A stretch of DNA of 64,000 bases from Escherichia phage iGC_PHA_EC001, in the sequence record OR437326.1. One strand, given 5' to 3'. Shown here in pieces: positions 40,732 to 45,485 of the stretch; within the stretch, counting starts at the first letter, position 1, and every line of letters begins with the position of its first letter. The position numbers and the translations under genes were made by a program. Below the pieces are notes generated by a model. It was not told the DNA's origin. It did no database searches and saw only the letters and a list, made by a program, of their open reading frames with translations.

Positions 40732-42738
40732 ATGAATTTAACAAGACCTAATAGTGCGATAGCCGATCTGGTAGAAGCTACTTATCGAAAACGTCGCAGC
40801 TTTGAGGCAGGTTTTACATTACGTAATTCCCGTGAAGTGTTGCTGTTAGCAGCAGAAGGGAATTATTACCAATGGAAAGGAACTTTTCCTAAAGTAGTTC
40901 CAGCAAACTCTACGCCAGCCGCCACAGGTGGTATTTCTTCCCTTGCATGGCAAAGTGTTGGGACCGCTGATGATATAGCAATTATCAATGCCAAGTTTAC
41001 GGCAATGCAGCAACAAATTGATGATCTGTCGGAAACAATACCTGAAGCTGGTAAATCGGCTTATCAGATCGCACTTGATAATGGTTTTGTTGGAACAGAA
41101 GCACAATGGCTTGCCTCTTTGAAAGGGGATACTGGTGCTCAACTTAATATTAAAGGATCATTAGCAAGCACTAGTGAACTACCATCCACAGGTAACGTTG
41201 CAGGGGACGGTTATATCGTAGGCGATGTAATCTACGCTTGGGATGGTTCTGTTTGGAAACTTATTTCTTCTCTTGGGCCAGAAGGTAAATCAGCTTACGA
41301 GGTATGGTTGGCAGATGGTAATACAGGATCTGTTTATGATTTTCTTACCTCTATAAAAGGTGATAAAGGTGATGTTGGTCCTACAGGGCCACAGGGAGCA
41401 CCTGGTGTTAACGCCAACGGTTTTGATTATCGTGGGGATTTGCCTTCTACAAGTAACTTACCACAACCTAACTCGGAAAACGTAAGCCAAGCTTATTCTA
41501 TCAATGGTAATCTTTATGTCTCTAACGGGACAGCTTGGGTCAACATGGGTAATATTGTTGGTCCTCAAGGTCCACAAGGTGAGGCAGGTAAAGACGGTCT
41601 TGATGGAACAGATGGAGATGAAGGGAAATCTGCATATCAAAGTTGGCTGGATGCTGGTAATGAAGGGACAGAAGTAGATTTTATTGCCTCACTTAAAGGT
41701 CCAAAAGGAGACAAGGGTGATCAAGGAGAGCGAGGTCCACAAGGTGAACTAGGTCCACAAGGACCAGTGGGTGCAACAGGATCAGGCTTAGAGATTATCG
41801 GGGTTCTGAACAGTGAAGCTGAACTTCCTCCTACTGGAGAAGTAGGCGATGCATATAAAATTAATAATGATTTGTATGTTTGGGTTCAAGATGCTACGGA
41901 ATGGATGAATGTTGGCAGTCTTGGAGGAATATCAATTACAGCTAAAGGTCATGTTCCGAACAGTGAAGCTCTCCCTGTTTACAATAACTATGGTGATGCT
42001 TACTTAACTGAAGACACTAGTAATCTTTACATCTATACTTACGATCAAGACACCAATTCCGCATCTTTTGTTGACATGGGAAGTATTAAAGGTGACAAAG
42101 GTGAGAAGGGTGATCCTGGAACAAACGGAACCAACGGTACTGATGGGACCAACGGTAAGGACGGCGCACAGTGGTTTGTAGCAACAACTAATCCAGTCGC
42201 AGGAGACGGTGTTATCAATGATTACGCCTTCAATACTAACACTGGAGCAGTGTTTAAGAAAACAGATTCTTCTACGTGGACACTTATAGGAACTCTTCCT
42301 AGTATACCAGAAGCCCCTCAAGATGGCTTGACGTATGGTCGTTCTGATGGAAACTGGATCGAAATATCAGGATCAGACCCTACAGAAGCTATAACACCGA
42401 CTAGAGTTACAGCAGGTTTCATGGAACTTGAAACAACTACTGCCAACTCTGGAGCATCTTGGACTCCTTCTGGAACTTCCAATATGTATGTTGTTACAGT
42501 AACTGACGCTCTGACAGTTGGAGCATGGCCTGGTGTCACTGGCTCTACAAAACCTAAAGCGTTTTCAGCAATGATTTATTTGATTCAAGATACAACGGGA
42601 CACACGGTTACACTAGATGCGTCTTATGGAGCACTAAATGATACAGAAATAGCAACTACTGCTAACGCAGTAACAATTTTGCAATTAACGTATCCTGGTG
42701 TGGGTGATATCGTGGACATGGTTGTTGTAACACGATAG
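40732..42738 (+). CDS. tail fibre protein with phage-fibre repeats and collagen-like Gly-X-Y tracts
   Basis: Three copies of GKSAY..L..G..G....F..S.KG repeat, each followed by Gly-X-Y runs (KGDKGDVGPTGPQGAPG; GPQGPQGEAGKDG; KGPKGDKGDQGERGPQGELGPQGPVG; KGDKGEKGDPGTNGTNGTDGTNGKDG). Confidence 0.6.
   Translation: MNLTRPNSAIADLVEATYRKRRSFEAGFTLRNSREVLLLAAEGNYYQWKGTFPKVVPANSTPAATGGISSLAWQSVGTADDIAIINAKFTAMQQQIDDLSETIPEAGKSAYQIALDNGFVGTEAQWLASLKGDTGAQLNIKGSLASTSELPSTGNVAGDGYIVGDVIYAWDGSVWKLISSLGPEGKSAYEVWLADGNTGSVYDFLTSIKGDKGDVGPTGPQGAPGVNANGFDYRGDLPSTSNLPQPNSENVSQAYSINGNLYVSNGTAWVNMGNIVGPQGPQGEAGKDGLDGTDGDEGKSAYQSWLDAGNEGTEVDFIASLKGPKGDKGDQGERGPQGELGPQGPVGATGSGLEIIGVLNSEAELPPTGEVGDAYKINNDLYVWVQDATEWMNVGSLGGISITAKGHVPNSEALPVYNNYGDAYLTEDTSNLYIYTYDQDTNSASFVDMGSIKGDKGEKGDPGTNGTNGTDGTNGKDGAQWFVATTNPVAGDGVINDYAFNTNTGAVFKKTDSSTWTLIGTLPSIPEAPQDGLTYGRSDGNWIEISGSDPTEAITPTRVTAGFMELETTTANSGASWTPSGTSNMYVVTVTDALTVGAWPGVTGSTKPKAFSAMIYLIQDTTGHTVTLDASYGALNDTEIATTANAVTILQLTYPGVGDIVDMVVVTR
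41355..42165 (+). repeat. collagen-like Gly-X-Y coding repeats within fibre gene
   Basis: Four separate Gly-X-Y tracts seen directly in translation. Confidence 0.6.
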
Positions 42739-42741
42739 CAG

Positions 42742-42766
42742 AAGCCCCGAAAGGGGCTTTCTTTTT
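42742..42766 (+). terminator. intrinsic terminator after fibre gene
   Basis: AAGCCCC-GAAA-GGGGCTT followed by TCTTTTTAT. Confidence 0.65.
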
Positions 42767-42779
42767 ATGGAGGGTTTAA

Positions 42780-43814
42780 ATGTTTCCAATTCCAATATTT
42801 ACTATTATGACCAGCACTGGTGTCGTTCCTCTGCCAGCAGGTATTGTTAAAAAAGTAATCACTTTAGATTACCCAGATAATGCTGGTAATTCTAACAGCA
42901 GTTTAGCAATTTTGCTTAATGATGGTAGATTGTTCACTCAAGGCGCAAACCTTTTTGGTGAGATTGCAGATGGAACTCGTAGTGCACGATTCAATAATTT
43001 CCACTTGGCTTCTACTGTAGCAGCGGATGTGTTTACCGCAGATCGTTGTTTTGTTATTAAAACTAACAGTGGGGGATGGCAATATTCAGGATTGACAGCA
43101 GGGTTGGTAGGATCTATAGCAGCAGGTGGTACGGACGCATGTGTAACTACTTGGACCAGCTTTCCATCTGTAATAACAGGGACTATCTCTTTAGCCAATC
43201 TTAAAGAGGTTAAGGGAGGATATAACAACACTCTCTGGTTAATGAATAGTGGTGTTCTTTACGGATCTGGTCAAAACACAGTAGGCAGTTTAGGTGCAAG
43301 TAATACTAACGAAGTTTCTACTCCTCGTCAGATAACAAGTGCAGCAGTTGCTTTTGATGCAGGTTACAACCAATGCTCTTATGTCAACAATGTGGGAACC
43401 TTGCGTGTTTGTGGAGCTAGTAAAGGCTTAGCAGGTAATAATAACACAACAACAGCTTTTGTCAATGCCAAGATATCCGCTACTGAAACAGTGTATGTCA
43501 AAGATTACATCAATACGGTTTCCCAGACAATAGTTGTAGGAGATACCTCCGGTGGCACGGGTACAGTAAACTACTTATATGTTAGATCTAATACAGAAAC
43601 AACCTACACTAAACTGGATACCTTTGCAGCAGGTTTCTCAACATGGAAGTTTCCACCAAGCCGCCACTCTTTTTTCGTTGGGATCAATAATTCCTTGTGG
43701 GCTATTGGTAAGAACTACACTGCAAACTTAGGTTTGGGGTATGATTCTGCGAGCGGAGATCCACTCCAAGTGGAAAACCAGTTAAACCTGAAGGAGTGGG
43801 TTCCTGGGATATAA
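42780..43814 (+). CDS. RCC1-repeat-like beta-propeller protein (putative receptor-binding protein)
   Basis: Several repeats resembling RCC1 blades (LLNDGRLFTQGANLFGEIADGT; LWLMNSGVLYGSGQNTVGSLGASNT; NNVGTLRVCGASKGLAGNNNTT). Confidence 0.4.
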   Translation: MFPIPIFTIMTSTGVVPLPAGIVKKVITLDYPDNAGNSNSSLAILLNDGRLFTQGANLFGEIADGTRSARFNNFHLASTVAADVFTADRCFVIKTNSGGWQYSGLTAGLVGSIAAGGTDACVTTWTSFPSVITGTISLANLKEVKGGYNNTLWLMNSGVLYGSGQNTVGSLGASNTNEVSTPRQITSAAVAFDAGYNQCSYVNNVGTLRVCGASKGLAGNNNTTTAFVNAKISATETVYVKDYINTVSQTIVVGDTSGGTGTVNYLYVRSNTETTYTKLDTFAAGFSTWKFPPSRHSFFVGINNSLWAIGKNYTANLGLGYDSASGDPLQVENQLNLKEWVPGI

Positions 43815-45451
43815 ACAAGCTCACAAGCGTTCATACGCTGAATATGGATGTTACTAACCAATTAGGTTATCAAGGAACCTTTTTCGTTTATAATGGAGAT
43901 ATGTATTATTCCGGTATTTGGAAAGATGGGAAAGCCTCGTATCTGTTCAATAGTGGTCTAAACTATAATAAATTCACACCAATAGCAAGCTCCGTGATTA
44001 CGGGTGATATTCTGGCAACTGGTTTAACTACAGATTCTTTAGGAATTTGTATTGTAGGTGGAACTAAACAGTTGACACATTCTGTTAGCCCAGAAGGAGG
44101 TAAACTTTTCAATATTAAATACACTTCTTCTGCCCCTGCAAACATGACAATATCATCTACTGGTTTAATGACTTTCCATGCAGAAGGTGGTTTTGATGCA
44201 GGTATGACAGCCTTAAACGCTGAAGGAACAACTTTATCAGATACCTCTGGAGGATATGCTTCAACATTGAGTGTTTACACCCCTAGCTTATCTGCGATGG
44301 ATGTAGGAACAACACAAACAATGGTAGCAGAAATAACGCCAACAGGAGCAGCAAGCTTACCTGGTATGGTTGTTGAGTATACAACTACAGATCCTAATGT
44401 TGCTACAGTAGATCCTACAACTGGTGTAATAACTGGTGTTGGTGATGGTGGTTGTAGAATTGGTTGCACAGCTACGTATCAAGGTGTTGTTACCGCTTCT
44501 GATAGTTCTTATTTAACGGTGAACGCTGTTGCGGGAAAGGAGTTAGCTCCATCTCCGAGTAGTAGTTTAACGGTTCTAAACGGATATTTCAACCACTCGG
44601 CAGATGGGGCAATCACGTTCCCAATTTTATCGGGTACTGTCACACCAGCTAACTTTGTAGTTAAGGTGGATGACGTTGTAATACCTTCAAATAAAGTAAT
44701 ATTTAGAAATAAAGCTTTCTCTACAGTGGATAGTTATCCAGCAGGAGAATATAGACTGGCTATTGAATTTGCAAGTGCTTCGGTAGTGAATAGTGTTGAT
44801 GTGTCTATGGAAGCAAATCCAGATCTTTTAGAATTATGGGGCGGCAACAGAATTGGTTATTCTACAAGCCCAGCCTCACAATTCTTAAAAGGTTGTGCTA
44901 ACTTAAGACGAATAACTTCTGATTGTTTTAGTAACACATCTTACACCGGAACATCTATAAGTGGTATCTTCTCTGGCTGTACAAGTTTGACAGCTATCCC
45001 TGAAGGATTATTCAGTGATGCTTTATTTCCTTCAATGACAACAATGTCAAGCACGTTTGAAGGTTGTACATCTTTAACATCTATTCCTTCAGATTTATTT
45101 AAGAATCTATCAAAAGTTACAAGATATTCTTACACCTTTAAAGATTGCACCTCTCTTGCAGAAGTTCCAGCAGGAATGTTTGATAATATTCCAACGAAAG
45201 TGACCTCCTTAACAGCTACATTCCAAGGTTGTTTAGCACTTACAGATTTTAATAAAATCTTTAATGACAATCCAGGGTTAACTGTTTGTGGTAAACGTGG
45301 AGCATTATCTTCTTTCTTTAGTGGATGCACAAATCTTACAGGAACAGGAACAACATTAACAAATACATTAGGCGGAGTAGCTAATAGTTACCTATTCAGG
45401 TATTGCACAAAACTTTCTGATTATAATAATATTCCTTCGGGTTATAAATAA
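43796..45451 (+). CDS. Ig-like (Big_2-type) plus BspA-type leucine-rich-repeat protein; start uncertain
   Basis: Segment TTDPNVATVDPTTGVITGVGDGG is Big_2-like; C-terminal repeats of F.GCTSLT.IP..LF type; track start is a GTG embedded in AAGGAG, so the true start may be downstream or the gene may be frameshift-coupled to 42780. Confidence 0.4.
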   Translation: MGSWDINKLTSVHTLNMDVTNQLGYQGTFFVYNGDMYYSGIWKDGKASYLFNSGLNYNKFTPIASSVITGDILATGLTTDSLGICIVGGTKQLTHSVSPEGGKLFNIKYTSSAPANMTISSTGLMTFHAEGGFDAGMTALNAEGTTLSDTSGGYASTLSVYTPSLSAMDVGTTQTMVAEITPTGAASLPGMVVEYTTTDPNVATVDPTTGVITGVGDGGCRIGCTATYQGVVTASDSSYLTVNAVAGKELAPSPSSSLTVLNGYFNHSADGAITFPILSGTVTPANFVVKVDDVVIPSNKVIFRNKAFSTVDSYPAGEYRLAIEFASASVVNSVDVSMEANPDLLELWGGNRIGYSTSPASQFLKGCANLRRITSDCFSNTSYTGTSISGIFSGCTSLTAIPEGLFSDALFPSMTTMSSTFEGCTSLTSIPSDLFKNLSKVTRYSYTFKDCTSLAEVPAGMFDNIPTKVTSLTATFQGCLALTDFNKIFNDNPGLTVCGKRGALSSFFSGCTNLTGTGTTLTNTLGGVANSYLFRYCTKLSDYNNIPSGYK

Positions 45452-45485
45452 GAAAAGGAGCCATTTGGCTCCTTTCTTTTATAAA
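45451..45485. terminator. bidirectional intrinsic terminator between convergent modules
   Basis: AAAGGAGCC-ATTT-GGCTCCTTT flanked by A-run upstream and T-run downstream. Confidence 0.7.

Follow-up and report, generated by a model that had tools for sequence, protein, structure and literature searches.

The locus at positions 42780–45451 of the 64-kb window from Escherichia phage iGC_PHA_EC001 (OR437326), the window being the whole stretch of DNA that was analysed, raises the question of whether it holds two tail genes, one gene whose halves are joined by a shift of reading frame, or one gene that has been broken. Two open reading frames are present, ORF1 (42780–43814, 344 aa) and ORF2 (43796–45451, 551 aa), with a mutual overlap of 19 nt; this layout had been described in the initial annotation and both frames were confirmed in the sequence. 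The suggestion that they represent a single split gene among the distal tail genes was also borne out. Both ORFs align to one PHROG profile, phrog_11922 (870 positions), ORF1 over positions 1–320 (E 3e-189) and ORF2 over positions 328–867 (E 1.9e-206), they correspond to a single CDS in intact relatives, and synteny places the gene last in the tail-fibre cluster (Table 1).

By homology, the locus is one known tail protein gene of Phapecoctavirus, gp086 of phAPEC8, the product of which has been named TfpM1 and is 890 or 891 aa long (PMC12695924). Every intact relative examined has a single CDS of 890/891 aa, and in eight annotated relatives one CDS of 2673–2676 nt occupies the syntenic place, against a span of 2672 nt in iGC_PHA_EC001. 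Re-insertion of the missing G gives an ORF of 890 aa, with 887 of the 890 residues identical to phage EF1-1. This repaired product is colinear over its full length with the copies of 536P1, EF1-1, tuntematon and Mt1B1_P17 (97–99.7% identity), and such full-length colinear homology places it in the phrog_11922/TfpM1 family. As in the phAPEC8 gp086 type, the gene lies between a 668-aa collagen-like fibre gene and the SSB gene with the same flanking terminators, the upstream one being annotated in phAPEC8 at the place equivalent to the hairpin at 42741–42760. The same neighbours (a 668/674-aa collagen-like fibre and a convergent SSB gene) are found in EF1-1, SF1-1, phAPEC8, AV126, tuntematon, ESCO5 and others. 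What sets the iGC_PHA_EC001 copy apart from the phAPEC8 gp086 family is one missing G and two ORFs in place of a single frame of 890–891 codons; it is a disrupted allele of the family. The two also differ after residue 584, where comparison of related copies places the boundary of the C-terminal cassette, which is of the leucine-rich repeat (LRR) type in iGC_PHA_EC001 (33 records) and of an alternative type in phAPEC8. The label ‘tail protein’ is a prediction from position and homology; no virion proteomic support for the family was found in the literature consulted, where the rV5 proteomics paper gave no identifiable orthologue.

Table 1. Features of the disrupted tail protein gene and its surroundings (window positions).
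Feature	Position	Strand	Remarks
Terminator-like hairpin	42741–42760	+	8-bp stem with 5 GC pairs and a T-run; follows the 668-aa collagen-like fibre gene upstream and directly precedes the gene start
Shine-Dalgarno (SD) GGAGGG	42769–42774	+	5-nt spacing to the gene's ATG; −9.8 kcal/mol vs anti-SD, like other true starts of the locus
Codons 1–331 in the native frame, encoding the conserved N-terminal part and blades 1–6 of the RCC1-like β-propeller	42780–43772	+	phrog_11922 positions 1–320
1-nt deletion site, GG vs GGG in all intact relatives (GTGGGAAAACC to GTGGAAAACC)	43772–43773	+	Comparison with relatives
End of ORF1 in the wrong frame, 13 aberrant codons (ENQLNLKEWVPGI)	43773–43814	+	Premature TAA at 43812–43814
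Codons 333 to ~405, −1 frame: propeller blade 7 and closing strand	43775–43993	+	Strands 348–355, 365–371, 374–379, 396–401
Ig-like (Big_2) region, intact residues ~410–583	44006–44527	+	Big_2 E 3.3e-11, two stretches
β-sandwich linker domain, intact residues ~598–690	44570–44848	+	Opens the exchangeable C-terminal cassette; strand pattern, pLDDT >90
BspA/TpLRR-type LRR solenoid, intact residues ~700–890	44876–45448	+	Six F..C..L repeats, spacing 27–32 aa
Native TAA stop of the gene	45449–45451	+	
Bidirectional terminator-like hairpin	45453–45476	.	Between the tail module and the convergent SSB/replication genes; terminator annotated in phAPEC8

The intact protein of 890 aa consists of a seven-bladed RCC1-like propeller (residues ~7–405), two Big_2 domains (~410–583), a β-sandwich (~598–690) and a BspA-type LRR region (~700–890). 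The domains first assigned from the sequence, namely an RCC1-like propeller, an Ig-like domain and BspA-type LRRs, hold in searches of Pfam and the PDB and in structure comparison. The RCC1 family PF00415 scores 28.6 bits, above its cut-off of 21.7; PF25390 gives E 4.6e-12, yet falls under its 150-bit cut-off, and phmmer against the PDB matches UVR8, RPGR and HERC1 at E ~1e-5. The fold was tested on an AF2 model (pLDDT 82) of P0013, an intact orthologue with 99% identity. Foldseek superimposes this model on UVR8 (E 4e-15, target TM 0.71), with ~400 columns aligned to complete seven-bladed propellers. The model forms a closed seven-bladed propeller, the last blade of which is encoded in another frame in iGC_PHA_EC001. 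The RCC1-like propellers of UVR8, the HERC1/HERC2 RLDs, RPGR and RCC1 have this seven-bladed fold in common with the phage protein (Foldseek E 4e-15 to 1e-9, target TM 0.6–0.71), but identity is just 12–17% and the phage copy is the N-terminal part of a fibre, with no GTPase or ubiquitin link.

The Ig-like region scores 43.4 bits for Big_2 (PF02368) in two stretches, against a cut-off of 22.8, and is common to phi92 gp152 and rV5-like Ig proteins. For the LRR region, a Pfam search with its own sequence leaves LRR_5 (13.6 bits vs 27.7) and DUF285 (13.8 vs 25) under their cut-offs, and Pfam has no match at E <= 1e-3 for the C-terminal module taken by itself. Homologues of this module are found at E 1e-60 to 1e-14, and among 44 aligned homologues LRR_5 is present in 20 (best E 4.5e-12) and DUF285 in 14 (best E 3.3e-46). 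Membership of the BspA-type LRRs is indicated by homology to bona fide members and by a solenoid fold with a regular repeat, its own Pfam scores lying below threshold. BspA/TpLRR repeats (LRR_5, DUF285) belong to surface proteins of Bacteroidales and spirochaetes, whereas the phage solenoid forms the distal end of a fibre on a coliphage. The view that these domains are uncommon in phage tails was overstated, as this architecture is a conserved trait of the genus Phapecoctavirus and of ‘Wecvirus’. The N-terminal part of the protein also occurs in PVP-SE1, GAP31 and rV5-like phages, and RCC1 repeats are found in several other PHROG families; a literature search on RCC1 propellers in phage tail fibres gave nothing specific.

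The two ORFs are separated by the deletion of one G from a GGG run at codon 331/332 (window 43772–43773), which is carried by none of the 64 related phage records. Such uniqueness would also be expected of a consensus error, in which the phage itself would have GGG and an unbroken 890-aa frame, the G having been lost in sequencing, assembly or Pilon polishing. The site lies within short homopolymers (GGGAAAACC), where indel errors are most common, and among the other broken public copies there is at least one low-quality-looking record, BI-EHEC (two identical +A insertions, sparse annotation). Against this, Illumina indel error is very low in 3-nt runs, and the genome was sequenced by Illumina MiSeq at 367x coverage and polished with Pilon (PMC10793346). 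An independent Logan assembly of SRR24776555, produced from the raw reads by a different assembler, although from one and the same read set as the published assembly, is identical to the window sequence over 8,538 bases, deletion included. In a 64-kb alignment with EF1-1 the deletion is the sole isolated 1-nt indel inside a long ORF, the others being intergenic or a compensated pair in a diverged stretch, and the long genes of the window have no further frame-breaking single-base indel. Since the deletion recurs when the same reads are assembled independently, it is most likely genuine and not produced by assembly, and a consensus error is considered unlikely; a systematic error, or a stock in which GG and GGG genomes are mixed, is conceivable. 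Repeats were rejected as a cause of the split, the internal and inverted repeats being only short, chance-level matches.

If the deletion is real, the two-frame layout could still be functional, either by fusion of the two frames or by their separate use. A programmed −1 ribosomal frameshift or transcriptional slippage would fuse ORF1 and ORF2 into a full-length protein, as might be read from the position of ORF2 in the −1 frame, its 19-nt overlap with ORF1 and an A4 run at the junction. Efficient polymerase slippage needs a longer run than A4. The 70 nt in which both frames are open (43745–43814) contain no slippery heptamer of the form X XXY YYZ, the RNA downstream folds no better than shuffled sequence (MFE −21.5 kcal/mol vs shuffle mean −18.8, z −0.84), and no Rfam frameshift element matches at the locus. 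The layout is also not conserved, since the relatives examined read through in one frame. As the deletion is in none of the 64 records the shift is not programmed, and with heptamer, stimulatory structure and Rfam element all absent this explanation is effectively refuted. Functional gene fission, with the propeller and Ig-LRR fragments both produced and working as two proteins, is highly improbable. GenBank and the Logan gene caller do list a pair of ‘tail proteins’ (344 and 535 aa), the distant phage L017 has a separate protein of 494 aa with Ig-LRR but no propeller, and the modules are separable in nature, P0004/P0005 having lost Ig by an in-frame deletion and P0020 carrying LRR fused to Tail_spike_N. 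However, the break is off the domain boundary and costs the protein blade 7 and propeller closure, whereas the stand-alone form of L017 starts at the propeller/Ig boundary (residue ~400–412) and not at 340 or 356; moreover, the layout is confined to one isolate, one base apart from its relatives. Nor does ORF2 have a start with a usable SD. When GTG 43796, ATG 43844 and ATG 43901 were compared for SD strength and spacing with five true starts of the locus (−7.3 to −9.8 kcal/mol, 3–5 nt spacing), none was convincing; ATG 43844 has no SD, and the AAGGAG in which the GTG had been noted to be buried is no ribosome-binding site but codes for protein (P-E-G-V when the gene is intact), with zero spacing to the GTG. 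An independent start was rejected for want of a candidate with adequate SD and spacing, and on these comparisons ORF2 is not an independent gene and has no usable ribosome-binding site. At the ORF1/ORF2 junction no internal promoter or terminator was found, promoter-like matches being at shuffle level (9 vs 7.5 ± 2.8). Because L017 encodes a separate Ig-LRR protein, a free Ig-LRR fragment may not necessarily be useless if it were translated, as could happen through re-initiation at ATG 43844, 30 nt past the premature stop. Of the three causes put forward in the initial annotation, recent pseudogenisation is therefore favoured, while a programmed frameshift is discarded and a sequencing or assembly error is unlikely. 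The gene is already known and its split is an ordinary strain-specific mutation, neither a recoding signal nor a new kind of gene.

The preferred reading, that a real 1-nt deletion has broken the tail-fibre gene and left a truncated product in a phage that lacks the fibre yet is viable, is quite probable. Translation from the normal start yields 331 native and 13 aberrant residues before the stop, and the remaining 558 codons lie in the −1 frame without a properly spaced ribosome-binding site. Because the AF2 model of the orthologue aligns along its propeller with complete seven-bladed structures, the break at residue 331 is placed inside the propeller, before blade 7, with the Ig and LRR modules disconnected. 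Loss of the G thus leaves a propeller that lacks its seventh blade and closing strand and is presumably non-functional. The Ig and LRR modules, the putative receptor-binding part, would either not be usefully produced or not be mountable on the virion, giving a phage without this one fibre. Viability would be kept by the several other fibres and spikes that are carried, on an isolation host, ARCH-BD-0001, that does not need the TfpM1 fibre. The gene is intact in close relatives and carries a single-base indel in one isolate, and the phage is viable, having been plaque-purified and propagated (PMC10793346). The broken copy is thus probably a null allele, in the gene for an accessory receptor-binding protein that is not needed on the isolation host.

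The split has a counterpart in the classic frameshift of stf, the side-tail-fibre gene of laboratory phage lambda. The stf gene of lambda PaPa was reportedly found by Hendrix and Duda in 1992 to be frameshifted and read as orf401 and orf314. Both cases concern an accessory fibre gene that is intact in relatives and split by a single-base frameshift in one propagated stock, with the phage fully viable. The lambda gene belongs to an unrelated protein family and phage type, and its thin side fibres and the faster adsorption on repair are reported to have been shown experimentally.

The gene is also broken elsewhere, with independent lesions in SF1-1, BI-EHEC, Ro121lw, a sewage metagenome and several SRA assemblies, while the neighbouring 1017-aa tailspike is unbroken in all 60 listed records. 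The comparison of deposited copies (4 of ~65 broken, against 0 of 60 for the tailspike) is in the expected direction, with small numbers and without statistical significance. Repeated independent breakage suggests that the fibre is dispensable on many laboratory hosts. The 9-nt tract GGGAAAACC, which includes the deletion, has suffered two independent indels, the loss of G in iGC_PHA_EC001 and a +C insertion in the sewage-metagenome phage, and at least three indels are found at GGTGGTACGG near codon 117. It is conceivable, though very unlikely, that this is a contingency-like locus, at which an accessory receptor-binding fibre of multivalent Phapecoctavirus phages is recurrently switched off, and possibly on again, by short-homopolymer indels. 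Were this true, particles with and without the fibre would persist side by side in phage populations, and fluctuating selection would act on the RCC1-Ig-LRR fibre, with its Bacteroidales-like LRR tips, as an exchangeable adhesin cassette.

For OR437326 the result means that the ‘tail proteins’ WMI32687.1 and WMI32688.1 are fragments of one disrupted gene and ought to carry a pseudogene or frameshifted-CDS flag; beyond such annotation hygiene the result is of little importance. With regard to therapeutic use against resistant E. coli, the isolate is probably without one receptor-binding fibre of its genus, and its host range could therefore be narrower than that of near-identical relatives.

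The two overlapping ORFs described in the initial annotation are present (overlap of 19 nt, with ORF2 in the -1 frame relative to ORF1), and both match one and the same PHROG family, the 870-position phrog_11922 ('tail protein'), ORF1 at positions 1-320 and ORF2 at 328-867. The window belongs to a Phapecoctavirus (phAPEC8-like, Stephanstirmvirinae) with phage EF1-1 as top DNA match (99.1%). A single CDS of 2673-2676 nt occupies the syntenic locus in EF1-1, phAPEC8 (gp086), AV126, tuntematon, vB_EcoM_01, ESCO5, Mt1B1_P17 and phiWec188, and the gene spans 2672 nt in the window. By multiple alignment exactly one base is absent, GTGGGAAAACC in the relatives reading GTGGAAAACC in the window, with the GG at 43772-43773. 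Putting the G back gives an 890-aa ORF identical to EF1-1 at 887 of 890 residues. The earlier suspicion of one split gene was thus right. The most probable cause of the split is a single-base loss specific to this strain, in a tail-fibre gene that is already known and annotated and whose phage genome is published. This protein, of 890 or 891 aa, has been named TfpM1, and occurs in Phapecoctavirus and 'Wecvirus' but is absent from phi92-like phages (PMC12695924). The family is already known and annotated, and a new system is unsupported by the evidence. ORF1 follows a strong Shine–Dalgarno (SD) sequence (GGAGGG, 5-nt spacing); at the ORF junction there is no terminator-like site and no promoter-like site above background.

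Features of the split fibre gene in the window, and lesions of the same gene in other records
Feature or record	Position	Strand	Description
Terminator-like hairpin	42741-42760		Upstream of ORF pair
ORF1	42780-43814	+	ATG start, 344 aa
ORF2	43796-45451	+	GTG start, 551 aa
Bidirectional hairpin	45453-45476		Downstream of ORF pair
Shigella phage SF1-1	Equivalent of 43071		G5 to G4
Phage BI-EHEC	Codons 117 (about 43127) and 259		Two +A insertions
vB_EcoM-Ro121lw (L018, MH160766.1)	2548-2802 (own record)		128-nt tandem duplication in fibre gene
Sewage-metagenome Phapecoctavirus (L013, L014; ERZ28614897 / ERR2241737)	7 nt downstream of the window's G deletion		CC to CCC
Several SRA assemblies			Various frameshifts in fibre gene

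The domains proposed initially were borne out by domain searches. Pfam gives RCC1 (28.6 bits, cut-off 21.7), the RCC1-like domain PF25390 (E 4.6e-12) and Big_2 in two stretches (E 3.3e-11), with LRR_5 (E 0.062) and DUF285 (E 0.048) each under its own cut-off. In phmmer searches of PDB sequences, residues 137-214 match the RCC1-like proteins UVR8, RPGR and HERC1 (E about 1e-5), and residues 735-811 match LRR proteins, namely a designed LRR (E 7e-6) and variable lymphocyte receptors. For the intact orthologue P0013, which is 99% identical over ORF2, AlphaFold2 predicts unbroken β structure between residue 7 and about residue 401 (mean pLDDT 82). In Foldseek, about 400 columns of this model align with complete seven-bladed RCC1-like propellers, UVR8 (E 4e-15, target TM 0.71) as well as HERC2, RPGR and RCC1. 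The C-terminal LRR module contains six F..C..L repeats spaced 27-32 residues apart; its homologues (E 1e-60 to 1e-14) are mostly Bacteroidales-type proteins with LRR_5, DUF285, BACON or fimbrillin domains. The nearest non-phage homologues of the LRR cassette (window 44876-45448) are Bacteroidales-type surface proteins at 30-40% identity, bearing BACON, viral-BACON, fimbrillin-like and DUF285 domains, a hint that coliphage fibres and gut Bacteroidales, or phages of the latter, may have exchanged adhesin modules.

The initial annotation had also offered programmed recoding or a sequencing error as causes of the split. Programmed frameshifting is excluded within the limits of sequence analysis. 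No X XXY YYZ heptamer occurs in the 70 nt with both frames open (43745-43814), folding of the 100 nt downstream of the junction is no better than that of shuffles (z -0.84), and Rfam finds no match there. Of the 64 phage records matched by an 81-nt query over the junction, none is 100% identical and none has the deletion; among the matches listed, 60 of 60 span 82 nt. A consensus error, in which the missing G arises in the consensus only, is unlikely. The genome was assembled with SPAdes from Illumina MiSeq reads at 367x coverage and polished with Pilon (reads SRR24776555, genome OR437326; PMC10793346). Logan's independent assembly of those reads equals the window over 8,538 bases in one contig, with the identical split (344 + 535 aa), and alignment of the 64-kb window to EF1-1 reveals no other isolated single-base indel within a long ORF. 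The deposited proteins are WMI32687.1, exactly ORF1, and WMI32688.1, ORF2 from ATG 43844, both labelled 'tail protein [Escherichia phage iGC_PHA_EC001]'. The deletion is most probably a genuine mutation that is either fixed or predominant in the stock used for sequencing.

Residues 1-584 are conserved genus-wide and recognisable in PVP-SE1 gp40 and GAP31 (38-44% identity); similarity to rV5-like phages extends over the first ~185 residues. The C-terminal ~300 residues exist in at least two exchangeable versions, with the boundary at residue 584 (window about 44528 onward). The DNA match spans the whole query in 33 records and ends at about query position 1830 in phAPEC8-type records, whose C-terminus differs from that of the window. 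This pattern fits an N-terminal end that would attach to the virion and a C-terminal end that would bind the receptor.

Rearranged relatives were also seen. Locus L015 (SRR10359460) has a 3.5-kb deletion (equivalent to window 40976-44479), and in its 396-aa product, P0020, the Tail_spike_N anchor (first ~73 residues) of the 668-aa fibre encoded upstream is followed by the C-terminal LRR cassette of the split gene. The junction sites have in common an imperfect 27-nt patch (CAARGTGTTGnnACCGCTnnTGATA; WQSVGTADD vs YQGVVTASD), which may be a recombination linker for cassette exchange. Proteins P0004 and P0005 (727 aa) and locus L016 carry a natural in-frame 489-nt deletion (equivalent to window 44023-44511) that removes the Ig-like (Big_2) region and joins the propeller straight to the C-terminal cassette. 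In a more distant relative (L017; SRR17660019, 127-kb contig, 2838-4985) the Ig and LRR regions (residues about 400-890) form a separate 494-aa protein, preceded by an unrelated 216-aa ORF in place of the RCC1 propeller.

Elsewhere in the window, the upstream fibre gene has an 18-nt length polymorphism in collagen-like G-X-Y repeats (42093-42106; 668 aa here vs 674 aa in EF1-1 and others). A densely gapped, diverged stretch against EF1-1 (4487-4690), amid a 98%-identical region, is probably a variable part of a non-coding or tRNA region. At the fibre locus, records labelled Campylobacter phage B15, Acinetobacter phage vB_AbaM_ABPW7, Klebsiella phage ZCKP1 and Dompiswa phage TSP7_1 share 96-98% identity with E. 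coli Phapecoctavirus, and Pseudomonas phage PsgM04F shares about 79%; the hosts named seem questionable, or else point to contamination or a broad host range.

The fibre gene is broken independently in other records (see table), and the neighbouring 1017-aa tailspike is unbroken in 60 of the 60 matches listed, SF1-1 and BI-EHEC among them. Repeated breakage beside a tailspike in one piece suggests relaxed constraint on the fibre, from small numbers and with some broken records perhaps of low quality. The sewage frameshift lies in the same short homopolymer tract as the window's deletion (43770-43779, GGGAAAACC) and gives two products, of 335 and 570 aa; ENA's and Logan's assemblies of the sample are concordant. 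The Ro121lw gene is annotated as two 'hypothetical proteins' of 478 and 428 aa. At one site, equivalent to about window 43127 (GGTGGTACGG, codon 117), at least three different indels occur in other genomes (loci L016 and L019, proteins P0009 and P0012): a 1-nt deletion (SRR22355933 contig), the BI-EHEC +A, identical to that at codon 259 (GGTG/G to GGTGAG), and, as inferred from P0012, a +1 insertion. A mutational hot spot could explain these repeated hits, as could a platform-specific error motif.

The break falls after codon 331, within the propeller, and translation past it adds 13 aberrant residues before a stop at 43812-43814. In the P0013 model blade 7 (four strands, 348-379) and then the closing strand (396-401) lie beyond the break; codons 333-890, in the other frame, specify this blade together with the Ig-like region, β-sandwich and LRR. 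No usable SD was found at any candidate ORF2 start checked: AAGGAG (43791-43796) has zero spacing to GTG 43796, its last G being the first of the GTG, ATG 43844 has no SD and ATG 43901 has GGAGA at 1 nt, compared with -7.3 to -9.8 kcal/mol at 3-5 nt spacing for true starts in the locus. The AAGGAG, singled out initially, is in fact coding sequence (P-E-G-V) kept in intact relatives. An isolate lacking this fibre would be the likeliest outcome. The stf frameshift of laboratory lambda is the classic parallel to such a split fibre gene. The fibre appears unnecessary on the clinical E. coli ST2089 host, because the phage was plaque-purified and propagated there (PMC10793346), and its probable loss fits the view of these multi-fibre phages as effectively monovalent on any one host (PMC8594841). 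The two CDSs should be re-annotated as a pseudogene or frameshifted CDS, and caution is due, as this candidate therapeutic phage is probably without one receptor-binding fibre.
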